A DNA stretch of 55,889 nucleotides from Candidatus Parcubacteria bacterium (GCA_039805545.1 JBDLUA010000020.1:1-55889), one strand, 5' to 3'; shown: positions 28,943 to 55,365, counted from the first letter of the stretch. Translations and numbers: made by a program. The notes: generated by a model not told the origin, from the letters alone.

Positions 28943-29665
28943 CTACATTTTTCCAAGAAAAACTTTTTCTAAAATTCCAGAATTAATTATCTTTTCAGGA
29001 GTATTCTCAACAACAACTTTTCCCTTATCAAGAACATACGCTCTATCGACTATTTGCAACACCGAATGTAAATTATGTTCTACAATAATAATCGTTGTTT
29101 TTCTTTTTTGATTAATTTCTTTTATTTTTGCAAAAACTTCTTTCACAACCTTTGGAGAAAGACCTAGTGATGGTTCATCAAGCAATAAAACCTTAGGATC
29201 AGTAATAAGTCCTCGCGCAATCGCAACCATTTGTTGTTGCCCTCCTGACAAATGTTTTACTTTTTCTTTTAATTTCTTTTTTAAATCAGGAAATAGTTCA
29301 AGTGTTTCTTCGATTTGTTTTTTTAATAACCCTCTGTTTGAGATGGCATATCCACCCATTTCTAAATTCTCATACACACTTAAGCTTGTGAACAATTGTC
29401 TTCCTTGAGGAACAAACGTAATTCCCCTCTCCACAATTTCATATGGAATTGGTTTAATTTCTTTTTCATGCCACAAAATTTTTCCACCCGAGATAGGAGC
29501 AAGTCCAAACAAGGCCTTCAATATAGTAGACTTCCCGGCACCATTTGGACCCATAAGAGCAACAATTTCTCCTTCATCAAATACAACAGTCGCACCATCA
29601 AGTGCCTTTACACCACCATAGTGAACCTGTATATCTTCAAGTTTGAGGAGTAACTCTTTTTGCAT
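28943..29665 (-). CDS. livF: Liv-type (HAAT) ABC transporter ATP-binding protein LivF-like
   Basis: GPNGAGKST, VPQGRQLF.SLSVYENLEMG, LSGGQQQMVAIARGL and LLDEPSLGLSP motifs. Confidence 0.92.
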   Translation of the reverse strand: MQKELLLKLEDIQVHYGGVKALDGATVVFDEGEIVALMGPNGAGKSTILKALFGLAPISGGKILWHEKEIKPIPYEIVERGITFVPQGRQLFTSLSVYENLEMGGYAISNRGLLKKQIEETLELFPDLKKKLKEKVKHLSGGQQQMVAIARGLITDPKVLLLDEPSLGLSPKVVKEVFAKIKEINQKRKTTIIIVEHNLHSVLQIVDRAYVLDKGKVVVENTPEKIINSGILEKVFLGKM

Positions 29666-33867: not shown

Positions 33868-34602
33868 CTACTCCCCCAAATACGCCTCGACAACATCTCT
33901 TCTCGACAACACATCTTCTGGTTTTCCTTCTGCAAGAAGCTCTCCCGCATCAAGCACCACAACATAATCACAGAGATCTCGAATGATTTCCATGTTGTGC
34001 TCAACCAATACAATTGCTTTTCCCTCTTCTTTTAATTGTTTAATGATATGTGATACTTTTTTGATCATCTCAGGAAAGAGTCCTGCATATGGTTCATCAA
34101 ACAAAATAACATCAACATCCATCGCAATAGCACGACCAATTTCAAGAAGCTTTCTTTGTCCATATGATAAGTTGAGTGCGAGCTCATTCTTCTTTGTTTC
34201 AAGTCCAACTATCTTTAGAATTTCTTCTGCTCGTACTTCATATATAACTTTATTTCTTTCAAAAAGAGATCCCCATACCCCACGATGTGTAAGTGTGAGA
34301 AGGATATTTTCAAATACACTCATTTGTTCAAACACTCTTACATTTTGAAATGTTCGAGTAATACCAAAGGTTCGAATATCAAAAGGTTTTATTTTATCTA
34401 TCTTTACCTTGTCGTCAATAATCAAAACACCTTTATCTTTAGGAACAATTCCAGTTACCAAATTAATAAGCGTAGATTTTCCAGAACCATTAGGACCAAT
34501 GAGTCCTGTTATCTTGTGTTTTTCAATAGAAAACCCTGCTCCATTAACGGCTTTTATTCCTGTGAATTTTTTATGAAAATCTTTTATGGTCAAAAGTGAC
34601 AT
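33868..34602 (-). CDS. livG: Liv-type ABC transporter ATP-binding protein LivG-like
   Basis: GLIGPNGSGKST, GITRTFQ, LSYGQRKLLEIGRA, DEPYAG, VEHNM and V.EAYLG motifs. Confidence 0.92.
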   Translation of the reverse strand: MSLLTIKDFHKKFTGIKAVNGAGFSIEKHKITGLIGPNGSGKSTLINLVTGIVPKDKGVLIIDDKVKIDKIKPFDIRTFGITRTFQNVRVFEQMSVFENILLTLTHRGVWGSLFERNKVIYEVRAEEILKIVGLETKKNELALNLSYGQRKLLEIGRAIAMDVDVILFDEPYAGLFPEMIKKVSHIIKQLKEEGKAIVLVEHNMEIIRDLCDYVVVLDAGELLAEGKPEDVLSRRDVVEAYLGE

Positions 34603-36734: not shown

Positions 36735-36772
36735 AAATCAAAAAACCGCCCTTTCTGGCGGTTTTTTGATTT
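36735..36772. terminator. Bidirectional terminator (array family)
   Basis: AAATCAAAAAACCGCC-CTTTCT-GGCGGTTTTTTGATTT. Confidence 0.85.
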
Positions 36773-38043: not shown

Positions 38044-38080
38044 AACCGTCTAACCCAAGCATTGCTTGAATTAGACGGTT
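38044..38080 (-). terminator. Terminator of the small membrane protein gene
   Basis: AACCGTCTAA-CC-CAAGCA-T-TGCTTG-AA-TTAGACGGTT with a U-tract on the minus strand. Confidence 0.75.
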
Positions 38081-38098
38081 GAAATTTCTGGCAGGTTT

Positions 38099-38392
38099 TC
38101 AGAAAAATGGCTCAGCATCTCTTTCACTGGCAGTGAGAGATATCATAAGAACAAACAACCCTGAAATCATAAGGAGCAAGGAAACAACCACAAATGCAGC
38201 ACCTAGGAAGCCGATAACAACTCCCGAATTAATGTGCCACAAATACAGTGCTGAGGAAAATAATCCCCAGGAAACGGCTATCATTACAAAAGCAAGAGCA
38301 AATGTCTTGAGTCGTCCATACCCTTTATCAAAGATAAGGCACCTTGCAAGAATGATTATCACAACAGCGATCGGAAAAATCAGAATGTTCAT
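38099..38392 (-). CDS. Small hydrophobic membrane protein (3 TM)
   Basis: 97 aa, almost entirely hydrophobic; has its own promoter and terminator. Confidence 0.7.
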   Translation of the reverse strand: MNILIFPIAVVIIILARCLIFDKGYGRLKTFALAFVMIAVSWGLFSSALYLWHINSGVVIGFLGAAFVVVSLLLMISGLFVLMISLTASERDAEPFF

Positions 38393-38558
38393 TTTGGTAA
38401 TTTTTTGGATTTGTGCTGACGAAAGCGGATTGTTTTCGTTACAGCAGGAAATTTATATACTAAATGGTATAATGAACTTTCCGCTATAACGAAACTTTTA
38501 GAGCTGATTTTTAAAGAACTTGCTTTTATTCTTAAATTGTAGCATAATATATTAAAAA

Positions 38559-40611: not shown

Positions 40612-41361
40612 ATGAATACAGAAATATTAAAACAATTTGGACTCACAAAAAACGATATAAAAGTATATGATTCCCTTTTTAAGTTAGGGCGATCTAAAAC
40701 AGGTACGATTATTAATGAAAGTAAAGTTGTAAGCTCTATGGTTTATTCATCTCTAAAAAACTTAACAGAAAAAGGTTTGGTTACTTTCATTGTTAAAAAC
40801 AATATAAAATACTATCAAGCAGAAATACCAAATAAGTTAATAGAAGATTATAAAAATAATGTAGATGAACTAGAAAAACTTTCAAAAGAGTTAAAATCAC
40901 TACCAATAGAAAAAACTCCTAGAAATTCAACAAATATCTACGAAGGGATTCACGGTTTCAAACTAGCCTTTGAACAACACATAGGAAATATGGGGAAAGG
41001 AGAAAAAGTAGGAGTAATTGGTTTTAATGAACAATCAATTAAAAAGGGTTTATTAAAAAGATACAAAGATTTCTTTGCAAAAGTAGATATTGATACAATC
41101 AAAAAAACTGAGAATGTTCGAATGATTATGGATAAAGATTTATTAAAAATATTACAAGACAAAATAAAGTATTATGAGAAATATGATTTAAGGTTTTTGA
41201 GTAAAGAATACTTTGGACCGATTGCAACAAATTTAAGCGAAAAAGAAGTTATGCTTTCTGTGTGGGGAGAGAAACCGACCGTGTTTACAATGAACAATCC
41301 AGCGATAGTAGAAAGTTTTTGGAAAAACTTTGAGATTTTGTGGGAGAAATCAAAGAAATAA
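40612..41361 (+). CDS. TrmB-family transcriptional regulator TrmB5
   Basis: LKQFGLTKNDIKVY..L, VYSSLKNLTEKGLV, IYEG..G and FEILWEKS motifs. Confidence 0.88.
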   Translation: MNTEILKQFGLTKNDIKVYDSLFKLGRSKTGTIINESKVVSSMVYSSLKNLTEKGLVTFIVKNNIKYYQAEIPNKLIEDYKNNVDELEKLSKELKSLPIEKTPRNSTNIYEGIHGFKLAFEQHIGNMGKGEKVGVIGFNEQSIKKGLLKRYKDFFAKVDIDTIKKTENVRMIMDKDLLKILQDKIKYYEKYDLRFLSKEYFGPIATNLSEKEVMLSVWGEKPTVFTMNNPAIVESFWKNFEILWEKSKK

Positions 41362-41377
41362 ACCGGATAAGATAAAC

Positions 41378-41413
41378 TAATCAAAAAACCGCCCCCGGGC
41401 GGTTTTTTGATTA
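41378..41413. terminator. Bidirectional terminator (array family)
   Basis: TAATCAAAAAACCGCC-CCCG-GGCGGTTTTTTGATTA. Confidence 0.85.
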
Positions 41414-42292
41414 TTTATTTTTCCATCTCAAGAAATGATCCGGAGCATATCCAATCACATAATCTACCTTGCATCTTGCAAACCCAGAGTGAATCTCGTC
41501 AAACGCTTCATTCTCATCTATAATGCCAACCTTTCCCGCTTCTTTAATCATGGAGTATTCTCCACTCACATGATATACAGACAAAGGAAGTTTTGTGATT
41601 TGTCGTGCCCTATACACAATATCAAGATACATCATTGCTGGCTTAACCATTACGATTGAAGCTCCTTGAGATTCATCTGCCACGATTTGGTCCAAGGCTT
41701 CACTTGGATTAGAGTAATCCGTCTGATATGTTTTCTTATCTTTTCCTTCAAGTGGTGACTGAATCGTTTCTCTATATGGACCATAAAGAGAGGACGAGAA
41801 CTTTGAACTATAAGCATGAATTTTAGTCGTTGTATACCCGGAGGTATCTAATGCACCCCGGAGAACTTGCACCTGTTCATATAATGACAGACAAGGTGCG
41901 ACATAATCCGCACCCGCCCCAGCAAAAGCAACTGCTAATTTTGAAGCTAGGGCATAACTTTTTTCAAAATTAATATGACCATTTTCAATAACAGTACTAT
42001 GACCATCAACTGAATAAGGTGACAACCCTACATCTGCATGAATTACAACTTCTGTTTTAAATTTTTCTTTCGCTGCCTTAATAAACTTAATAATCAAACC
42101 CTTTTCACAAGCAAAATCTACTGACTTATTATCTGTTGAACCAAACACAAGAAAATCTTTTATTCCTTGGTCTAAATATTTTTCAATAAAATCTAAACCT
42201 GATTCTAGCGTGTGATAATCAACATCAACCATTGGTGAATCTTGTCTTTCGGTTATTCCTTCTTTTAAGAAAAGGCATGCTATATATTTCAT
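41411..42292 (-). CDS. HemB (porphobilinogen synthase)-like protein, divergent paralog A
   Basis: AGADYVAP, YSSKFSSSLYGPYRE, KKTYQ, IVMVKPA and YHVSGEYSMIK motifs. Metal-site motif altered to DVGLSPYSVDGHS. Start at ATG 42292 matches paralog B (MKYIAC). Confidence 0.85.
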   Translation of the reverse strand: MKYIACLFLKEGITERQDSPMVDVDYHTLESGLDFIEKYLDQGIKDFLVFGSTDNKSVDFACEKGLIIKFIKAAKEKFKTEVVIHADVGLSPYSVDGHSTVIENGHINFEKSYALASKLAVAFAGAGADYVAPCLSLYEQVQVLRGALDTSGYTTTKIHAYSSKFSSSLYGPYRETIQSPLEGKDKKTYQTDYSNPSEALDQIVADESQGASIVMVKPAMMYLDIVYRARQITKLPLSVYHVSGEYSMIKEAGKVGIIDENEAFDEIHSGFARCKVDYVIGYAPDHFLRWKNK

Positions 42293-42299
42293 ATTGTTT

Positions 42300-43187
42300 T
42301 TATTTCCAAACTCTAATAGTTTTATTTTCAGCCGATAATTCATTTAACCCTTTTACAATCTCCCTACTACCATCTTTGATATTAACAGTTAATTTAAAAT
42401 TACCTATTACAAAATCCATCTCTGGCTTACTTAGTATATAGTCAACATTCACAATCTCAAGATTAAGAAGTTTTTTCCAAAAAATATTCTCTTGCTCAAA
42501 ATTTCTTAAATTATTTTTATATACAGAACTACCAGAGACACCTGAGATTTTATTCATTCCCTCTTTTATTATCTCATTATCTTGAAATTCTGGATGATTT
42601 CTAAGTGTATCATCTAACATAAAAATACTTCCCTCTACATACATCAGTGGTTTAATAAAGTTTGATATCTTTGTTTTTGATACATCATCAAAATATTGAG
42701 AAACTACTCCTTCGCTAAATATTAAGACTGGGTCACTTGGGTTCAATTCATCTTTTATCTTTTGCCAAGTCTCTTCTTCTAACAAATCACCTGAAATAAA
42801 TTTAAGATTTTCAAATTCCCCTTTAATTTCATTAATAATTTCTTTTTTTAATTCAGAATTTTCTTTAAATTCAACTTCAATATATTTTCCAATTTTAAAA
42901 TCTAAATTTAAAAAATGAGGTGTAAAACCAGCTCCTAATTCAACTATTTGCAATCTGCCTCCAAATTTTTTAGCCATAAAATTCAGTACCGATTGATTGG
43001 TGTAAAATCTGGCAACAGGAAAAGCGGAAAAATAATCGCTAGATATTTTAGGCCAAATTTTTGGCCACATCTCGCCAATCCTATTTTTGAGTGTATTAAT
43101 TATTTCACCACTATATTTAACATCCGAGTGATCATTTAAATCAAGGATTGTGCTTGAAGTTTTTTGAATTTTTTCTTTGTCTATCAT
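42300..43187 (-). CDS. SAM-dependent methyltransferase (leucine carboxyl methyltransferase-like)
   Basis: VARF, QIVELGAGF, YIEVE, ISGDLL and LIFSEGV.S.YF motifs resembling the LCM/TcmP family. Confidence 0.8.
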   Translation of the reverse strand: MIDKEKIQKTSSTILDLNDHSDVKYSGEIINTLKNRIGEMWPKIWPKISSDYFSAFPVARFYTNQSVLNFMAKKFGGRLQIVELGAGFTPHFLNLDFKIGKYIEVEFKENSELKKEIINEIKGEFENLKFISGDLLEEETWQKIKDELNPSDPVLIFSEGVVSQYFDDVSKTKISNFIKPLMYVEGSIFMLDDTLRNHPEFQDNEIIKEGMNKISGVSGSSVYKNNLRNFEQENIFWKKLLNLEIVNVDYILSKPEMDFVIGNFKLTVNIKDGSREIVKGLNELSAENKTIRVWK

Positions 43188-43195
43188 CTTAATGC

Positions 43196-44083
43196 CTAAT
43201 TATTTTTATTTGACCATCTTAAGAAATGATCTGGCGCATAACCTATAACATAATCAACACCGCAACGTTTAAAAGCAGAGTGGATTTCATCAAAAGCCTC
43301 ATTTTCATCGACAATGTCAATTCTGCCACCTTCCTTTAACATAGAATACTCTCCACTTACATGATATACAGAAATAGGTAGACCGGTCTGCTGTCTTGCT
43401 CTATATATTATGTCTAAATACATCATAGCAGGTTTAATCATAACAATATCCGCGCCTTGTTTTTCATCTTCAAAAATATGGTTCAGTGCCTCTTCAGCAT
43501 TCAATGGAGCAATATGGAATTCATAAGGTATTTTTCCATCTTTTGGAGATTGTATTGTTTTAAAATATGGACCATACAAGGATGAAGAGAACTTTGCACT
43601 ATAACCCATTATTTTCACTGAACTCATACCAGACTCACTCAAACTTTTTTTAACTTCACAGACTTGATTTTCTAATGGTAAACATGGGCAAACATAATCA
43701 GCTCCCGCACCAGCAAACACTACAGCAAGTTTCCCTGCGATTTCATAACTCTTTTGATAATCAACTTTTTCATCAACCATAATCAAACTATGTCCATCCG
43801 TAGAATATGGAGACAGTCCAACATCAGCATAAATTACAATACTTGTTCCAAACTTTTCTTTAGCCGTTTTAATAAAGTTTTTAATTAGCCCATCAGCACA
43901 AGCAAATTCAATTGACTTGTTATCAGTAGAACCGAACACAAGAAAATCTCTGATTCCTTGGTCTAGATAGTTTTTGATGAATTCTAATCCTGATTTAAGG
44001 GTGTGATAATCAACACCAACCATTGGAGAAGGTTGTTTTTCATCAATACCCTCTTTCAGAAATACACATGCAATGTATTTCAT
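43196..44083 (-). CDS. HemB (porphobilinogen synthase)-like protein, divergent paralog B
   Basis: MGYSAKFSSSLYGPY, GADIVMIKPA and YHVSGEYSML motifs; clearly paralogous to 41411-42292. Confidence 0.85.
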   Translation of the reverse strand: MKYIACVFLKEGIDEKQPSPMVGVDYHTLKSGLEFIKNYLDQGIRDFLVFGSTDNKSIEFACADGLIKNFIKTAKEKFGTSIVIYADVGLSPYSTDGHSLIMVDEKVDYQKSYEIAGKLAVVFAGAGADYVCPCLPLENQVCEVKKSLSESGMSSVKIMGYSAKFSSSLYGPYFKTIQSPKDGKIPYEFHIAPLNAEEALNHIFEDEKQGADIVMIKPAMMYLDIIYRARQQTGLPISVYHVSGEYSMLKEGGRIDIVDENEAFDEIHSAFKRCGVDYVIGYAPDHFLRWSNKNN

Positions 44084-44085
44084 GT

Positions 44086-45192
44086 TTAGATGTTCTCAAA
44101 ATTTCCATCGGTCTTTACCTTTCTCCAAACTAGTTTCTTGTTTACATTTTGGCACGAATCATCAAAATCAATATCTCCTGTTATTCCCTTAAACTCAGGC
44201 ATATCAACAAAATATTTTGCGAGTTTTTTTGGATCTCCACCAACTTCATCTACTGCTTGAACAAGAATATTATATGAATCATATGTAAGTGCACCTAGAA
44301 GAATTGGTGAATTCTTAAATTCTTCTTGATATCGTTTTGAATAATTTACAGCTCCTTCATTCACGTTTAGATCTGCTTGAGGAGTATATACATAATCAAC
44401 AAAAGATACATCAGCAGCAACTGTTCTATCTTTCATATTAGGACTTGTAACTGTCCAAATATCTGAAACAATTGGTTTTGTCCAGCCTAATTCTTTCAAT
44501 TGTTTAAACATGGGCTCTGGTGTGATGTTATTTGTTATTACAAGTACATCTACTTCATTTTGTTTTTTTACAAGCTTCAAAATATTTGATCGCAAGTCGC
44601 CAGAAGCCTGATCGTATGTTTCACTTACAACAACAGTTCCTCCAAGAGTAGTGAAAGATTTTGTAATTTCATTATTCATTGTTACACCATATTCATTATT
44701 TGCAGTAAGAAGAGCGATGTTATTATATTTCAAATTATTTTTTGTATAGTCAGAAACAGAAGGACCGAGTATGTCAGCAGTTAATCCTATTCTACATGTA
44801 AGAGGGCTTTCATCTGTGAAAGCAGGTGTTGTAGCAGATTGAGCAAATACGAGAATACCGTCTTGAACAGCCTTCTCTCGAATAGCCGCAACAACAGGAC
44901 TGCCATCCGCGATAATAACTTTTATACCCTTTAATTTGAGTGCCTCATATCCAGACAGCGATGTCTTTGGATCATACTTTGAATCTTCATAGATAAATTC
45001 TACTTTAGCACTAGGGTTATCTCGTTGGGCCAAAGCAAGAGCATTCTTTTGCACTTCACCTGCAATAGCAAGAGGTCCAGAAAGTGGCGTAAGGACACCG
45101 ATCTTAACTGTTTGGCCATCAAGCTTATTATTTTTTAAACTTAGTCCCACAATTACCAAAATAATTATTCCTGCTATAATTTTCTTTTTCAT
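44086..45192 (-). CDS. LivJ/LivK-like substrate-binding protein SBP6 (first gene of the HemB-like operon)
   Basis: KIGVLTPLSGPLA, YEDSKYDPK, NEYG, TYDS and GITGDIDFD motifs; stop 2 nt before the HemB-like B start. Confidence 0.9.
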   Translation of the reverse strand: MKKKIIAGIIILVIVGLSLKNNKLDGQTVKIGVLTPLSGPLAIAGEVQKNALALAQRDNPSAKVEFIYEDSKYDPKTSLSGYEALKLKGIKVIIADGSPVVAAIREKAVQDGILVFAQSATTPAFTDESPLTCRIGLTADILGPSVSDYTKNNLKYNNIALLTANNEYGVTMNNEITKSFTTLGGTVVVSETYDQASGDLRSNILKLVKKQNEVDVLVITNNITPEPMFKQLKELGWTKPIVSDIWTVTSPNMKDRTVAADVSFVDYVYTPQADLNVNEGAVNYSKRYQEEFKNSPILLGALTYDSYNILVQAVDEVGGDPKKLAKYFVDMPEFKGITGDIDFDDSCQNVNKKLVWRKVKTDGNFENI

Positions 45193-45227: not shown

Positions 45228-45269
45228 AGACAATCAAAAAACCGCCAGAAGGCGGTCTTTTGATTGTCT
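45228..45269. terminator. Terminator after SBP7 (array family)
   Basis: AGACAATCAAAAAACCGCC-AGAA-GGCGGTCTTTTGATTGTCT. Confidence 0.85.
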
Positions 45270-46536: not shown

Positions 46537-47283
46537 ATGTCAAAATTAGAAGCAAATCTAAAACTATTTGGTCTAAAAGAAGGCGAAATAACAACATATC
46601 TCTTTCTCCTATCAAACCGAGATCTTCCCGCATACAAAATAGCAACAGGAACAAACATTCCAAGAACTACAGTATACAAACATCTGGAATCCTTAGAAAA
46701 ACAAGGCCTTGTGTCCAAATGGTCAAAAAATTCTGTTAAACATTTTTCTGCAGAAAATCCAAAACGCCTTGAACAGCTTTTGAATTTTAAAAAAGAAGCC
46801 TTAAACAACATACTTCCGGAATTAACGAGTAAATTTAATAACGAATCTATTTACCCTACAGCAAAACTCTATACAGGTAAAGAAGGAGTGAAGTACGCGT
46901 TTGAGCATATCTTAGAAACAATTATAAAAGAAAAACTTAAACTAGTTTATGCAATATCAGAAAAAAAGCTGACCGAAACACTTCCAAAGTTTTTTTTGGA
47001 TTGGAGAGAAAGAAAGAATAAAAAAACAGGAGCATTTACATACATGATAGTTTCAGAAGGAACTGCATCACATCAGCACTATAAAAGTGATCCCTTTAGA
47101 GAAACACGAGAAATGCCACAGAAAAATTTGCTCGAAGGTTCTTTAAACATAATTGGAAACAACGTTTATTTTTTCTCCTTTAAAGAAGAGGGGAATGAAA
47201 TATACTCGCTTGTAATAGAATCACCCATCGTGGCATCCATGATGACAAAATTATTTTTATACATTTGGAAAACATTAGAATAA
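46537..47283 (+). CDS. TrmB-family transcriptional regulator TrmB6
   Basis: LKLFGLKEGEITTYL.LL, TNIPRTTVYKHLESLEKQGLV, AENP and YTGKEGV motifs. Confidence 0.9.
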   Translation: MSKLEANLKLFGLKEGEITTYLFLLSNRDLPAYKIATGTNIPRTTVYKHLESLEKQGLVSKWSKNSVKHFSAENPKRLEQLLNFKKEALNNILPELTSKFNNESIYPTAKLYTGKEGVKYAFEHILETIIKEKLKLVYAISEKKLTETLPKFFLDWRERKNKKTGAFTYMIVSEGTASHQHYKSDPFRETREMPQKNLLEGSLNIIGNNVYFFSFKEEGNEIYSLVIESPIVASMMTKLFLYIWKTLE

Positions 47284-47314
47284 TCAAAAAACCACCTTCT
47301 GGCGGTTTTTTGAT
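47282..47314. terminator. Bidirectional terminator (array family)
   Basis: AATCAAAAAACCACC-TTCT-GGCGGTTTTTTGAT. Confidence 0.8.
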
Positions 47315-47335
47315 TTAGAGTACTTAGTCTAGCAA

Positions 47336-51474: not shown

Positions 51475-52353
51475 CTATAACTTATACTCCCCCATAAACC
51501 CCTGAGGCCGATACATCATGAGCCCAACAAGAATAAGTCCGTATACAACTTGTCTCATTTGAGCGGCGATATCTGTTGGGAATCCAACAAATCTAAGAAC
51601 TTCAGGCAATAAGATTAGAAATACAGTTCCCCATACCACCCCCTTATTACTTGCGAGTCCTCCAAGAATAATAATTGCCAAAATAAATATTGATTCTCCT
51701 AATGCAAAAGAAGAAGGATCAATAAATGTGATGTAACTTGCAAATAGTGCTCCTGCAAACGAAGCCATTCCTGCGCTTATTGAAAAAATAAGTGTTTTAT
51801 ATTTTTTAGTATCATATCCAAAAACCTGAATTACCTGTTCGTTTTCTCGAATTGCTTTAATAACTCTTCCGAATGAAGATGAAACTATGTATTGAGAAAT
51901 TTGATAGATAATAAATGAAAAAACTAAACATAAAATAAGGAAAGAGGTGTTTGATCTAAAAATATAATCAAATGAGCCCAGGTGTATTGCAGGCCTATCT
52001 ATTCCAGAGATTCCAAGTGGTCCTCTTGTAAGTTCTTGCCAATTAAGAAAAATACTGAAAACAATTATATTTAAACCAAATGATGCAAGTGCATAATAAT
52101 CACCTTTAAATCTCCCCATAATAAGCCCAAAAACAAGAGAATTTATTACCGTAATGATGCACCCTACAATCATGGCAAAAAAGAAATTTACATCATACCG
52201 TGTAATTAAAATTGCATTTGTGTATGCACCAATTCCAAAAAAAGCAGCATGTGTAATTGAGAGAAGCCCCGTATACCCAACAGCAAGATTCAAACTAATA
52301 CTTAATATAGACCAAATCGAGATAAGTATTGCAAGGTGTATGAGATATTCCAT
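51475..52353 (-). CDS. livM: Liv-type ABC transporter permease LivM-like
   Basis: LNLAVGYTGLLSITHAAFFGIGAY, GDYYALAS, LTRGPLG, SSFGRVIKAIREN and LPEVLR motifs. Confidence 0.92.
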   Translation of the reverse strand: MEYLIHLAILISIWSILSISLNLAVGYTGLLSITHAAFFGIGAYTNAILITRYDVNFFFAMIVGCIITVINSLVFGLIMGRFKGDYYALASFGLNIIVFSIFLNWQELTRGPLGISGIDRPAIHLGSFDYIFRSNTSFLILCLVFSFIIYQISQYIVSSSFGRVIKAIRENEQVIQVFGYDTKKYKTLIFSISAGMASFAGALFASYITFIDPSSFALGESIFILAIIILGGLASNKGVVWGTVFLILLPEVLRFVGFPTDIAAQMRQVVYGLILVGLMMYRPQGFMGEYKL

Positions 52354-52357
52354 ATAT

Positions 52358-53230
52358 TTATTTTACCTTTAAAATTCCACCTGGTCTAAATATTAAAAAG
52401 AGGATTAATACTCCAAACGCAATCGCATCTTTCCATTCTCCTGATATTTTCCAGATTCCAAAATTCTCAATAAATGCAAGAAAGAATGCTCCGAGAACAC
52501 CACCATATACATTACCAATTCCGCCTATTATTGAAGCAATTGTACCTTTAAGAAGAAGTCCCATACCCATAGTTGGTTCAATGCCTGTATCAAACCCAAT
52601 TGCAATACCAGCAACCCCTGCAATTATAGAACCAATAAAAAATACTCGTGCAATTATCTTTTTTGTATTAATACCAACAATCTCCGCAACTTGTTCATCA
52701 TCAGAAATTGCCTTTATTGCTTTACCGAATTTTGTAAATTTCATTAGATATGCAAGAACAAGCATTATCCCTATTGCGACAATGAGTATGTATACTTGAA
52801 CTTGTGTCATTACTCCTCCAAAAACTTCGTATACTTTAGTTGTTGAACTACTTGATGTAAGTGTCTGAAACTGACTGGTAAATATGATTGCAACAATTGC
52901 TTGTAATGCAGTAAGTAGTCCGAGCGAAGCAATTAAGAGTATCATTCCTGAAGAACCGTTTTTTCGTATTGGTGCATATACAAATTTTTCACAAAGCCAA
53001 CCAACAAACCCTGAGAATACAAGAGCAATTAAAATCGAAAGAAAAATATTTACATCATGTTCTTTTGCAAGAAAAAAAACTACGTATCCGCCAATAGTCG
53101 CAATAACCCCGTGAGATAAGTTAAAAAACTTAGTTACACCAAATATAAGATTAAAACCAAGGGCAATTAGTGAATAAAGTGAACCAGCAATAATACTATT
53201 TATAACAATCTGAGGAATTATTGAATCCAT
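52358..53230 (-). CDS. livH: Liv-type ABC transporter permease LivH-like
   Basis: GSLYSLIALGFNLIFG...FNLSHG, TKFGKAIKA, IIGGIG and FRPGG motifs. Confidence 0.92.
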   Translation of the reverse strand: MDSIIPQIVINSIIAGSLYSLIALGFNLIFGVTKFFNLSHGVIATIGGYVVFFLAKEHDVNIFLSILIALVFSGFVGWLCEKFVYAPIRKNGSSGMILLIASLGLLTALQAIVAIIFTSQFQTLTSSSSTTKVYEVFGGVMTQVQVYILIVAIGIMLVLAYLMKFTKFGKAIKAISDDEQVAEIVGINTKKIIARVFFIGSIIAGVAGIAIGFDTGIEPTMGMGLLLKGTIASIIGGIGNVYGGVLGAFFLAFIENFGIWKISGEWKDAIAFGVLILFLIFRPGGILKVK

Positions 53231-53753: not shown

Positions 53754-55280
53754 CTATACACTCATAAACTTCTCCTGTGGTCGATACGATAATGCCTCAA
53801 GAATATGCTCTTTCAGAATTTGAGTTTGATTATCAAGGAGTGAAATAGTAAGTGCAACTTTTAAGATATTTGTATAACTTCGAGCAGAGATTTGAAACCG
53901 AGCAGCAAGCAAATCATAAAATTCTTTTACATCCTTTGAAATAGATATTGTTTGAGCGAGCTTTTTTGTACTCATTCTTCCTGTTAACATATCGAAATTT
54001 TTAAGTTGGAATGTTCGCATACTCGATACAATGTTTTTCATTTGAGCGTGTTGTATGTTTTGAATTTCCTCTGATTCGACTAATTTATCGTATGCAATTT
54101 TTGAAACCTCAACCCACATCTCGACTCTATCTATAATTGGACCAGAGATTTTTTTATTATATTTTTGAATTTGTCCAACAGAACATACACATTCTTTTAT
54201 TCCGGTATTCAAATATCCACACGGACAGGGATTCATAGAACAAATTAATTGAAAATCACATGGAAATTCTATCTTTTGTCCAGCTCGTGCAATACGAACC
54301 TTTCGTTCTTCGAGTGGTTGTCTGAGCGAGTCAATTACTCGTCTATCAAACTCTGGGAATTCATCAAGAAACAATATACCCCGATGAGATAATGTTATTT
54401 CTCCTGGTTGTATTTCTTTTCCTCCTCCTACTATAGAAGCGTATGATGCACTGTGATGTGGTGCCCGAAATGGAGGATGTGTATGAAGTGAAAACTCATA
54501 TTCAGAAGAAAGAGAATATATCGAAGTTAATTCAACTTGTTGTTCAAAAGATAATTCTGGTAGAACATTTGAAGATGCTCGTGCAAGCATAGTCTTTCCT
54601 GTTCCTGGTGGACCATACAAACAAATATTATGTCCTCCTGCGAGCGCGATAAGAAGAGCTCTCTTGGCAGAATCATTTCCTTTAATATGATCAAAAATAA
54701 TAGTATCTTTATTCTTAGTATGTGTATGAATTATTTTTGAAATTGGTTCGATATCTTGAATACCACAAATATAATCAATAACTTCACGCAAAGTTTTGCA
54801 AGGAATAATATTTATATGTTTACACAATACCGAAGCCTCTTCTTTGTTTGAATACGGAATAATAACTTCTGTAAATCCAGAATGTTTTGCTTTTTGAATC
54901 ATCGGAATTATTCCTTTTACTCTTTTTACTTCCCCATCGAGCGATAATTCTCCAAGAAAAACAAATCTCGATATATCTGATTTTATCTGCTCACTTGCTC
55001 GAAGGTATGCAATAGAGATAGCAACATCAAACACAGTTCCAGTTTTTTTAATGTGTGCAGGAGAGAGTGATAATAAAATCTTTTCATTTGATGCTCGAGG
55101 AGAACGCATTCCTGTATGCTTAAGCGCGAGACTACAACGCTCTTTGGATTCTTCTACTGTCTTATCTGCAAGTCCAACAATTGAAAAATGATGAAGACCT
55201 TTTGAAACATCCGCTTCAACTGTTATAAGTTCTGATTGTAAATGAGTTTGAGTAATTGTATATGCTTTTGAAAATGCCAT
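53754..55280 (-). CDS. comM: YifB/ComM family Mg-chelatase-like AAA+ ATPase
   Basis: IVGLADK.V.ES.ER, GELSLDG, GPPGTGKTMLA, PFRAPHHSAS, PGEITLSHRGILFLDEFPEF and MNPCPCG motifs; start at ATG 55280. Confidence 0.94.
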   Translation of the reverse strand: MAFSKAYTITQTHLQSELITVEADVSKGLHHFSIVGLADKTVEESKERCSLALKHTGMRSPRASNEKILLSLSPAHIKKTGTVFDVAISIAYLRASEQIKSDISRFVFLGELSLDGEVKRVKGIIPMIQKAKHSGFTEVIIPYSNKEEASVLCKHINIIPCKTLREVIDYICGIQDIEPISKIIHTHTKNKDTIIFDHIKGNDSAKRALLIALAGGHNICLYGPPGTGKTMLARASSNVLPELSFEQQVELTSIYSLSSEYEFSLHTHPPFRAPHHSASYASIVGGGKEIQPGEITLSHRGILFLDEFPEFDRRVIDSLRQPLEERKVRIARAGQKIEFPCDFQLICSMNPCPCGYLNTGIKECVCSVGQIQKYNKKISGPIIDRVEMWVEVSKIAYDKLVESEEIQNIQHAQMKNIVSSMRTFQLKNFDMLTGRMSTKKLAQTISISKDVKEFYDLLAARFQISARSYTNILKVALTISLLDNQTQILKEHILEALSYRPQEKFMSV

Positions 55281-55320
55281 GTACATACTATACGGACATG
55301 AGTTCAAATTTTTATGAAGA

Positions 55321-55365
55321 AAAAATAAAAGCGGCGAAGGCAAGGCCTTCGCCGCTTTTATTTTT
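55321..55365. terminator. Hairpin terminator after the dksA-like gene
   Basis: AAAAATAAAAGCGGCGAAGGC-AAG-GCCTTCGCCGCTTTTATTTTT. Confidence 0.85.

Follow-up and report, generated by a model that had tools for sequence, protein, structure and literature searches.

PBGS (HemB/ALAD, EC 4.2.1.24) is described in Zn-type and Mg/K-type forms. Excerpts of two reports relate that the N-terminal arm builds the octamer or hexamer (PMC535902; PMC7729013), and in those of the second the lid binds a carboxylate and zinc acts on the Km-determining substrate (PMC7729013). According to the portion of PMC535902 available to us, the Rhodobacter capsulatus enzyme, 56% identical to that of P. aeruginosa, is a metal-ion-independent hexamer rather than an octamer and lacks the determinants for both catalytic Zn and allosteric Mg. 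Another variation is the Zur-regulated HemB2 of Pseudomonas and others, an additional HemB that lacks the zinc cysteines and accompanies a canonical copy; the available part of that source interprets it as a Mg/K-type enzyme that backs up heme synthesis when zinc is scarce (PMC2770081).

We analysed a stretch of 55,889 nt from Candidatus Parcubacteria bacterium (GCA_039805545.1 JBDLUA010000020.1:1-55889; hereafter the window), in which two HemB-like genes and a methyltransferase gene (MT) follow a binding-protein gene (SBP6). The reading that we favour, at a probability of about 0.4, is that the bacterium imports an ALA-like C5 acid and turns it, by condensation and methylation, into a non-heme product, as conserved residues and gene neighbours suggest. 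Four open frames were read on the minus strand in the order SBP6, HemB-like A, MT, HemB-like B, with a hairpin at either end:

44086-45192, minus strand: SBP6, first gene of the unit, LivJ-type Peripla_BP_6 (PF13458, 5.4e-41) with an N-terminal membrane anchor
43196-44083, minus strand: HemB-like A, 295 aa (Pfam ALAD, 2.9e-70)
42300-43187, minus strand: MT, an LCM-fold class I SAM methyltransferase, 295 aa (Pfam LCM, 7.9e-06)
41411-42292, minus strand: HemB-like B, 293 aa (Pfam ALAD, 1.3e-75)
45232-45265, no strand assigned: palindromic hairpin with T-runs between SBP7 and SBP6, likely the SBP7 terminator
41378-41413, no strand assigned: bidirectional hairpin terminator with a 16-bp stem at the end of the unit, common to the convergent TrmB gene at 40612-41361

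The tight operon described in the first-pass annotation was borne out by direct reading of the junctions, which are TAA-ac-ATG between SBP6 and HemB-like A (2 nt gap), TAG-gcattaag-ATG between HemB-like A and MT (8 nt) and TAA-aaacaat-ATG between MT and HemB-like B (7 nt). The longest possible HemB-like B frame begins at 42343, which would give a 44-nt overlap with MT; since homologues begin with MKYIAC, the likely start is 42292. The hairpins at the two ends of the unit are two copies of one terminator. The copy at 45232-45265 was read by eye and by pattern match, the terminator scan listing it on the plus strand only; since it lies between SBP7 and SBP6, SBP6 plausibly heads a separate four-gene unit. 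The arrangement is best explained by a single transcription unit of SBP6, HemB-like A, MT and HemB-like B that couples uptake to conversion.

HemB-like A and B are 68% identical and keep, as first claimed, both Schiff-base lysines (YSAKF/YSSKF and IKPA/VKPA). These residues, K164 and K217, are invariant in an alignment of 25 diverse clade members and align with the two lysines of the E. coli PBGS chains 1i8j/5mhb; residue roles were assigned through E. coli and P. aeruginosa PBGS numbering, which we take to apply here. The SGE serine and the IGY tyrosine are likewise conserved in the alignments. The AF2 model of HemB-like B (pLDDT 88.7) matches PBGS structures in Foldseek at a TMq of 0.89-0.90, the solved PBGS sharing 30-37% identity with the clade. 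Clade proteins are about 295 residues long and have no N-terminal arm: the Pfam PF00490 ALAD match begins at profile position 25-27 in the HemB-like proteins, and the median count of residues ahead of the barrel is 0 for 116 clade members, compared with 33 for 74 canonical PBGS.

The metal site, said at first pass to be neither Cys-rich nor Asp-rich, indeed reads DVGLSPYS(T/V)DGHS in the pair, and the APSxxMDG position, where the replacement of APSDMMDG had also been noticed, holds CPCLPLENQ or APCLSLYEQ. Both features run through the clade, with D.GLSPY in 116 and PC(L/I)(S/P)(L/I) in 117 of the 120 best matches. The metal triad is G89/S91/S99 in at least 99% of 116 clade members, whereas the same sites are Cys, Asp or Ala in all 74 canonical PBGS. 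Sites fixed in 74/74 canonical PBGS are altered (P->C, S->C, MM->SL, F->Y), and the further changes E->Q and T->G fall at sites fixed or nearly fixed across those 74. In a quick tree the clade splits from 40 canonical PBGS at an SH-aLRT of 99-100. Judged by their sequences, the HemB-like proteins are a clade apart from canonical PBGS, with invariant residues of their own. Our search for publications on this clade found none.

HemB-like B is the mainstream type of the clade: like other B-type proteins it keeps GPYR and (R/K)KxYQ, its own motif being KKxYQ. The lid residues of HemB-like A are remodelled (GPYF, IPYEFH); with F, P, Y and H in place of basic residues, this enzyme probably accepts an uncharged partner, such as a methyl ester. 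The A-type subclade accounts for 10 of the 120 best matches, with a clade support of 99 in the quick tree, and HemB-like A is 87% identical to one clade protein (P0002); it is best explained as an older duplicate.

The match of MT to Pfam LCM (PF04072) is weak by sequence, at 26.3 bits with a gathering cut-off of 22.3, and no NCBIfam match was found. Its homologues in two related loci (L087 and L089) score 27.3 and 26.9 bits to LCM, and this profile also matched 9 of the 10 distant relatives that were sampled. The MT model (pLDDT 87.5) has ML2640c, PPM1 and LCMT1 as its Foldseek top ten (E 1e-8, TM 0.47-0.67), the best fold matches being 2uyq, 1rjd/1rjf, 3iei and 6id6 (TM 0.60-0.65, identity 13-20%), and the protein carries a VELGAGF glycine-rich SAM motif. 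The remaining Foldseek matches include C-, N- and O-methyltransferases; fold likeness does not fix the acceptor, and the carboxyl group that we infer as the target of MT comes from the family name only.

That MT acts with the HemB-like enzymes, as had been proposed, agrees with its place beside a HemB-like gene in 11 of the 16 related loci with enough flank, with an in-frame MT and HemB-like fusion (P0058) and with the small size of its family, only 48 clusters among 5.8 billion proteins. For 14 of the 46 other MT clusters, the longest contig has exactly the same size as that of a HemB-like cluster. MT is absent from five informative loci (L005, L006, L097, L098 and L099), where the neighbours are unrelated or NRPS-type, as in L097. 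These gene associations mark MT as a dedicated functional partner of the HemB-like clade and as a small LCM subfamily of its own, tied to that clade.

Some relatives carry another partner: in L094/L095 and L100 a truncated GluTR comes immediately after the HemB-like gene, and L088 has a GluTR remnant in that place; the GluTR-like partner is thus found only in two independent lineages plus one remnant. The truncated proteins (PF05201, 6.7e-25 and 3.8e-19) have the catalytic N-domain with the active-site cysteine motif TC(Q/E)R(V/I)E(L/I)Y (TCQRVELY and TCERIEIY), and they were aligned to 1gpj and 4n7r. At 223-234 aa, they end shortly after a glycine-rich stretch, lack the dimerisation domain and retain no more than a stub of the NADPH domain; against NCBIfam hemA they score 70 and 45 bits (cut-off 209.55). 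No HemL was seen in the related loci.

The replacement of universal PBGS residues means that the reaction is possibly not a PBGS-type condensation at all. An imported oxo-acid could instead undergo some other Schiff-base reaction on the pair (aldolase, retro-aldol, isomerase or ring opening), in which case the unit would break down or salvage what SBP6 binds and no pyrrole would arise. Several observations agree with this: universal A-site residues are replaced (the metal triad, S->C, MM->SL and F->Y), a place behind an uptake SBP suits catabolism, and the neighbours of non-CPR members, which have no MT, look degradative (an FAD monooxygenase and an MmgE/PrpD protein, also a bicupin and an MFS transporter). 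The first two of these neighbours suggest that the chemistry of the clade may serve several pathways, catabolic ones included. Two lysines with two carboxylate sites are, however, the layout for joining two like molecules, the GluTR-like and NRPS neighbours point to synthesis, and a dedicated MT would be unusual for degradation; we consider this alternative unlikely for the pair in the window.

Could the pair nevertheless be a true, Rhodobacter-like metal-independent PBGS, with imported ALA and with porphobilinogen finished by a host or partner, or by unrecognised genes? The predicted PBGS fold, the lysines and the carboxylate-binding residues of both sites kept in HemB-like B would allow it, a metal-independent, non-octameric PBGS has a precedent in the excerpted PMC535902, and in relatives a GluTR-like neighbour suggests precursors of the ALA type. 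The genome (G000; 683 kb, rated 99.71% complete) argues against it. GluTR, HemL-type, HemC, HemD and HemE (PF05201, PF00202, PF01379, PF02602 and PF01208) gave 0 matches there, while 10-14 of 14 control genomes were matched in these profile searches, and no other tetrapyrrole gene was found in the window, as had been remarked at first pass. The gene with the 'Mg_chelatase' Pfam match, at 53754-55343, carries the domain set ChlI/Mg_chelatase/Mg_chelatase_C and presumably encodes a ComM/YifB-type protein rather than a tetrapyrrole enzyme. HemB-like B (253.1 bits) and A (232.9 bits) both fall below the cut-off of 297 of the NCBIfam PBGS equivalog NF006762. Further points against a true PBGS are the alteration of sites fixed in canonical enzymes, the exclusive MT partner, which would be left without a role, and one heme-making Synechococcus genome that retains a canonical hemB, a full-length ALAD (442 bits) adjoining the short form (203 bits). 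In addition, a search of 800 other Patescibacteria genomes for the module gave a single weak match and nothing else. We regard a true PBGS as distinctly improbable. The missing pathway, the sub-cut-off scores and the separate clade support the conclusion that the pair are not housekeeping heme enzymes, in line with the initial view of them as repurposed.

SBP6 lies in an array of nine SBP genes, eight of which stand head to head with a TrmB-type gene; SBP6 is the exception, as first observed. A 136-aa ORF separates SBP4 from its TrmB-type gene. The window also encodes the other parts of a LIV-type importer:

51475-53230, minus strand: two LivH/LivM-type permease genes (Pfam BPD_transp_2, 4e-44 and 5.5e-43)
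33868-34602, minus strand: LivG-type ABC ATPase (Pfam ABC_tran and BCA_ABC_TP_C)
28943-29665, minus strand: LivF-type ABC ATPase (Pfam ABC_tran, 6.9e-34)

The permeases are the membrane core common to the nine array SBPs, and SBP6, with its PF13458 match and with permeases and ATPases in the array, is a LIV-type importer SBP; its N-terminus is hydrophobic in the ORF translation. The ORF translations of the HemB-like enzymes and MT show no signal peptide, and no exporter gene is present in the four-gene unit.

These features bear on the first-pass proposal that the enzymes and MT make a diffusible signal sensed by the SBP/TrmB array, as in a quorum-sensing synthase/receptor pair. A synthase-type module does lie within the array, among binding proteins and regulators, and the expected recurrence of the clade beside SBP/TrmB genes was found in part: in L089 and L090 the module is followed by a TrmB gene, and in L092 and L093 LIV-type ABC ATPases stand ahead of it, L093 having an SBP as well. 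This SBP is closer to SBP7, and no SBP6-specific orthologue was found beside the module in the other loci. Besides the missing exporter and signal peptides, the array SBPs feed an importer encoded alongside, SBP6 is the sole SBP without its own regulator, and the module is missing from nearly all searched relatives. In relatives without transport genes, a truncated, precursor-making GluTR-like gene stands in for them, so that precursor supply fits better than product sensing. We find the signalling proposal unsupported and its truth very improbable.

The sporadic distribution, the recombinases or transposases near the module in L003, L088, L090 and L093 and the GluTR remnant in L088 might also suggest that the four-gene block is recent, decaying cargo with no role in its host bacterium. 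We give this hardly any credence: the four frames are intact and tightly coupled, the A-type proteins form a conserved subclade, and near-identical pieces spanning the gene junctions are present in contigs from three other studies. The pattern is best explained if the MT and HemB-like module is an accessory set that is rare and moves horizontally in CPR bacteria and DPANN archaea.

In the favoured reading, condensation and methylation of an imported acid, SBP6 would pass an ALA-like C5 amino-oxo acid or close analogue to the shared LivHMGF-type importer. In the cytoplasm, the two PBGS-derived TIM-barrel enzymes, whose lysines and fold are those described above, would use lysine Schiff-base chemistry, HemB-like B holding both substrate carboxylates with the residues that it keeps and HemB-like A taking an uncharged, for example methyl-esterified, partner. 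MT would methylate the substrate or product, presumably at a carboxyl group, and the output would be a small molecule other than a tetrapyrrole, and not heme; a methylated monopyrrole resembling porphobilinogen is the most likely candidate. This very small, symbiont-type bacterium, which lacks heme synthesis, probably uses an altered heme-enzyme pair and an MT, placed behind an uptake gene, for small-molecule synthesis. A bolder version, which we hold to be doubtful, is that DVGLSPY/PCLSL marks a new PBGS-derived family and that this family defines a C5 pathway independent of heme in ultra-small symbionts (CPR, DPANN): the precursor would come from Glu-tRNA via the mini-GluTR or from LIV-type import, the carboxyl MT would esterify one partner, A would take the ester and B the free acid, and the product would be a monopyrrole with asymmetric methylation or some new heterocycle related to it. 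If true, such a compound could be a cofactor, an antimicrobial or a host-directed metabolite.

Compared with known systems, the HemB-like enzymes resemble PBGS in the TIM barrel, both lysines, the P-site serine and tyrosine and, for B, the basic lid; they differ in lacking the Cys/Asp metal ligands (G/S/S instead) and the N-terminal arm, and in having no pathway partners in the genome and a dedicated MT neighbour. The metal determinants missing from R. capsulatus PBGS are missing here too, but that enzyme is, in the excerpts of its description (PMC535902), a full-length housekeeping protein of about 36 kDa in a tetrapyrrole maker, unlike the armless clade. From HemB2, as presented in the part of PMC2770081 at hand, the clade is set apart by the lack of a heme pathway, by having neither Cys nor Asp ligands and by MT; this separation is by description, and overlap of HemB2 with the gammaproteobacterial branch of the clade is possible. 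MT shares a Pfam match above the cut-off, the fold and the SAM motif with the LCM/PPM1/ML2640c family (PF04072), yet is only 13-20% identical to its solved members and sits in its own small subfamily. Finally, the GluTR catalytic domain directly after the HemB-like gene in relatives recalls the entry to the C5 pathway (HemA GluTR -> HemL -> HemB), but there GluTR is shortened and the loci have no HemL, and the genome of the window has neither.

Our study showed that the two HemB-like proteins encoded in the window, A and B, belong to a distinct clade derived from porphobilinogen synthase (PBGS, HemB/ALAD), with intact Schiff-base lysines and with the metal site and N-terminal arm gone. It also showed that an LCM-fold SAM methyltransferase (MT) is the exclusive partner of this clade. 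In the window the genes follow SBP6, one of the LIV-type substrate-binding proteins (SBPs) of the array:

44086-45192, minus strand: SBP6 (Pfam Peripla_BP_6)
43196-44083, minus strand: HemB-like A (Pfam ALAD, 2.9e-70)
42300-43187, minus strand: MT (Pfam LCM, 26.3 bits, cut-off 22.3)
41411-42292, minus strand: HemB-like B (Pfam ALAD, 1.3e-75)

The stop-to-start spacings SBP6/A, A/MT and MT/B, read directly from the junction sequence, are 2, 8 and 7 nt, the very values from which the first-pass annotation had proposed a tight operon. The longest frame of B opens at 42343 and would overlap MT by 44 nt; its start is more likely at 42292, because MKYIAC, with its methionine, opens all homologues. 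Between SBP7 and SBP6 (45232-45265) lies a GC-rich hairpin with T-runs after it, and 3' of B (41378-41413) a stronger one with a 16-bp stem; with hairpins on both sides the four genes therefore look like a single unit with its own start. Complex prediction for MT with B gave a score of 0.00 and no call either way. One palindromic hairpin (AATCAAAAAACCGCC, loop, GGCGGTTTTTTGATT) recurs at four unit borders of the array (36736-36771, 41379-41412, 45232-45265 and 47282-47315); its half-sites give 9 matches against 0.3 expected, and the loops are unlike and the flanks show no resemblance. As possible cassette borders these hairpins offer no evidence of an insertion scar: the pair flanking the block has only the hairpin in common, and the palindrome is also found at 36736-36771 and 47282-47315. 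Composition shows no clear sign of foreign origin, GC being 0.31 at 42-44 kb and 0.30-0.37 elsewhere.

Besides nine Peripla_BP_6 and eight TrmB-type genes, the window encodes a pair of LivH/M-type permeases and a pair of LivG/F-type ATPases. Eight of the nine SBP genes stand head-to-head with a TrmB gene, and SBP6 is the sole exception, as had been noticed from the sequence at the outset. We thus read the array as a single importer of the LIV type whose nine interchangeable SBPs each have their own regulator, except SBP6. The unit of SBP4 is the only one with an extra gene in its divergent spacer, a 136-aa ORF (38079-38489) without a Pfam match between SBP4 and its TrmB.

Identity between A and B is 68%, and they score 233 and 253 bits against the NCBIfam PBGS equivalog, both under its cut-off of 297; the best sequence match among solved structures is 5lzl (1.3e-46). 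The AF2 model of B (pLDDT 88.7, low confidence confined to the lid, residues 171-182) superposes on PBGS structures with a TMq of 0.89-0.90. Aligned with E. coli PBGS, the clade proteins of the window have G, S and S in place of the three zinc cysteines and retain both lysines (K164 and K217), which bears out the earlier statement that both paralogues keep them. Among the best 120 of 4717 relatives in a database search (172-478 aa), D.GLSPY is present in 116 and PC(L/I)(S/P)(L/I) in 117. By the names in the records, their sources are Patescibacteria and Pacearchaeota; Mycobacterium, Shewanella surugensis and further bacteria also appear, at about 40% identity. In a quick maximum-likelihood tree (38 members, 40 canonical PBGS) a branch with SH-aLRT of 99-100 separated the two groups; midpoint rooting placed the long-branched cluster P0070 with the canonical sequences. 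One Synechococcus genome encodes both a full-length ALAD (442 bits) and the short form (203 bits), so the latter is an additional paralogue and no replacement. The groups also differ column by column:

Residues distinguishing the clade from canonical PBGS, by position in B (116 clade members against 74 canonical sequences; P0058, P0070 and members shorter than 271 aa excluded)
Position 6: C in the clade; P in canonical PBGS (74/74)
Positions 89/91/99, metal triad: G/S/S in the clade; Cys, Asp or Ala in canonical PBGS
Position 134: C in the clade; S in canonical PBGS (74/74)
Positions 136-137: S, L in the clade; M, M in canonical PBGS (74/74)
Position 173: Y in the clade; F in canonical PBGS (74/74)
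Position 202: Q in the clade; E in canonical PBGS (73/74)
Position 281: G in the clade; T in canonical PBGS (72/74)

We take position 134 to be the serine near the substrate amino group in PBGS, and position 202 is presumably the allosteric-magnesium glutamate site of P. aeruginosa PBGS. The triad agrees with the first-pass description of a metal site of neither the Cys nor the Asp type. In the same sequences the median number of residues ahead of the barrel is 0 in the clade and 33 in canonical PBGS.

The genome (682,907 bases in 27 contigs, completeness rated 99.71%) has two ALAD matches, both inside the four-gene unit. Profile searches for GlutR_N, Aminotran_3, Porphobil_deam, HEM4 and URO-D gave zero matches in it, and the same searches match in 10-14 of 14 control genomes; the search for hemA/L/C/D that the first-pass annotation had proposed thus found none of them. 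A single TP_methylase match was discarded as a tetrapyrrole enzyme and is read as an rRNA methyltransferase type, because all 14 controls match too, including genomes without tetrapyrroles. The 529-aa protein encoded at 53754-55343 combines the domains ChlI, Mg_chelatase and Mg_chelatase_C and is presumably an ATPase of the ComM/YifB type, not a tetrapyrrole enzyme, the name 'Mg_chelatase' being, we assume, misleading. In such a genome we consider it quite improbable that A and B are true metal-independent PBGS, an enzyme type that does exist in Rhodobacter (PMC535902); this is one of the main rivals to the reading given below.

The partnership with MT emerges from 24 related loci carrying the clade motif or a close match (L003-L006 and L086-L105), 16 of which have sufficient flank. 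An MT homologue adjoins the HemB-like gene in 11 of these 16: directly upstream, at 45-57% identity, in L086, L088, L089, L090, L092, L093, L094, L095 and L100, and as a more distant homologue upstream in L003 and downstream in L087. Allowing for the near-duplicates L092/L093 and L094/L095, this amounts to about nine independent cases; MT is absent beside the HemB-like gene in the other five (L005, L006, L097, L098 and L099). The family is small: at E <= 0.001, a set of 5.8 billion proteins yields only 48 clusters, and for 14 of the 46 other clusters the longest contig is exactly as long as that of some HemB-like cluster, an indirect sign that each of these 14 pairs lies on one contig. In P0058, from a single 1,520-bp metagenome contig whose frame is cut at both ends, the C-terminal part of MT is fused in frame to a full HemB-like protein (...RVWE, QDE, INYIAC...). 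Of 861 more distant MT representatives retrieved by a profile search, 31 matched at 1e-30 or better, and nine of ten sampled distant relatives match LCM. The MT model (pLDDT 87.5) is closest in fold to ML2640c, PPM1 and human LCMT1 (TM 0.60-0.65, 13-20% identity). The MT homologue of L089 (2743-4110, 455 aa) has an N-terminal NUDIX domain, a possible sign that some lineages work with a nucleotide-linked compound.

Further genes accompany the module elsewhere. In L094/L095 and in L100, a Pacearchaeota archaeon in which the two genes have consecutive locus tags, the HemB-like gene is directly followed 3' by one for a 223-234-aa protein with the catalytic domain of glutamyl-tRNA reductase (GluTR; PF05201, 6.7e-25 and 3.8e-19), in which the cysteine motif is present and the NADPH domain is a glycine-rich stub. 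L088 has a degenerate GluTR remnant, and a word-based search with the short GluTR of L100 gave no match beyond the query protein. Two LivG/F-type ATPases lie ahead of MT in L092 and L093. The expectation that the clade would recur beside SBP/TrmB genes was borne out in part, by a same-strand TrmB gene 3' of the module in L089 and in L090 and by an SBP, along with a transposase, in L093. In L097 (1395-8558), which has no MT, the setting is that of secondary metabolism: an adenylation-carrier gene overlaps the HemB-like gene, next to which lie a sulfotransferase and an NRPS module with condensation, adenylation and carrier domains, its weak Acyl_transf_3 match staying under the Pfam threshold. 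Recombinase genes occur near the module in L003, L088 and L090. NYN-domain genes adjoin it in two unrelated loci (L087:6333-6899 and L100:5236-5841), the second also having a class I aminoacyl-tRNA synthetase gene beside it; this may be chance or a tRNA link. Two non-CPR loci, L007 (2919-8805, Synechococcus) and L008 (8001-12091, an actinomycete), share a conserved cluster in which a FAD_binding_3 monooxygenase gene overlaps the HemB-like stop by 4 nt and an MmgE/PrpD protein is encoded nearby, L007 also having a bicupin and an MFS transporter. Ahead of the HemB-like gene these loci also have ORFs of 498 and 611 aa, which match no family, are mutually unlike and were dropped because their low-complexity translations resemble shadow frames of GC-rich DNA. 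Another main rival, conceivable if rather unlikely, is that A and B use Schiff-base chemistry for some other reaction, as part of catabolism.

The lid sets A apart from B. GPYR and (R/K)KxYQ are kept in B and most of the clade, the aligned E. coli stretch being GPFR...DRKSYQ. In PBGS, as described in PMC7729013, basic lid residues hold the carboxyl of the Km-determining substrate, the binding of which requires the catalytic zinc. A has GPYF and IPYEFH at these places, as do 10 of the best 120 relatives. A-type sequences form a clade (support 99) nested among CPR B-type sequences in the quick tree, and the closest relative of A is P0002 (87% identity), not B, which suggests that A is an old, conserved duplicate with an altered second substrate site. 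None of the 24 related loci has a clearly A-type gene. The longest contig measures 2,151 bp for both of two different HemB-like clusters, P0013 and P0022; should it be one and the same, they would be a second side-by-side pair, with no space for an intervening MT.

Taken together, we tentatively favour, with a probability of roughly 0.4, a reading in which an imported ALA-like C5 acid would be converted and MT-capped to a non-tetrapyrrole molecule. The substrate may be an ALA-like C5 amino-oxo acid because the carboxylate sites are kept and relatives have a GluTR-like neighbour, and it would be imported in this organism because SBP6 leads the unit, the array has an importer and the genome has no GluTR or HemL. 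MT would esterify or otherwise cap substrate or product. The first-pass annotation had suggested a product that the array imports or senses, in an arrangement like quorum sensing; since some relatives have a GluTR-like gene where others, and the window, have transport genes, precursor supply is likelier than the sensing of a signal.

The spread of the MT-HemB-like module is sporadic. Of 400 further genomes drawn from the phylum, a single one, 2.1 Mb in size, matched B as query, at 35% identity and only from residue 37 onwards; A as query was matched in none of 400 others from the class, the two samples overlapping in some genomes. A tblastn search of a plasmid collection with P0071 returned canonical hemB only, all below 40% identity, and among 60 relatives of an actinomycete genome 22 had matches, only of the canonical kind (34-40% identity), with no short-clade context. 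Contig pieces from three other freshwater studies are near-identical across the SBP6/A, A/MT and MT/B junctions. In another freshwater run, one contig of low depth passes from the start of A straight to the corresponding place in B (window 42225 to 44017) and lacks the 1791 nt in between, with the bulk of A, the whole of MT and the beginning of B. This could reflect a genuine single-copy variant that lacks MT, or the assembly may have linked the paralogous starts.

CPR and DPANN cells are thought to depend mostly on imported building blocks, and PBGS is, to our knowledge, regarded as universally conserved and as having tetrapyrrole synthesis for its only purpose. If our reading is correct, a PBGS offshoot without metal site or arm and with a private methyltransferase, in heme-less organisms, would be a new use of this chemistry and among the few biosynthetic capacities assigned to such cells. 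It would also provide an entry point to what a single member of such genomes' large SBP/TrmB arrays may carry. The module is small (two or three genes, soluble proteins of about 295 residues) and should express and assay easily, so that the question is directly testable. We found no published description of the clade in the literature searched, although supplements and the wider literature may contain one. The known relatives are canonical PBGS, the metal-free hexamer of Rhodobacter (PMC535902) and the Zur-regulated non-zinc HemB2 (PMC2770081). In canonical PBGS the arm is present and there is neither a G/S/S triad nor an MT, and, going by their descriptions, the same holds for the Rhodobacter enzyme and for HemB2; the HemB-like clade, in contrast, has lost the arm, carries G/S/S and is accompanied by MT.
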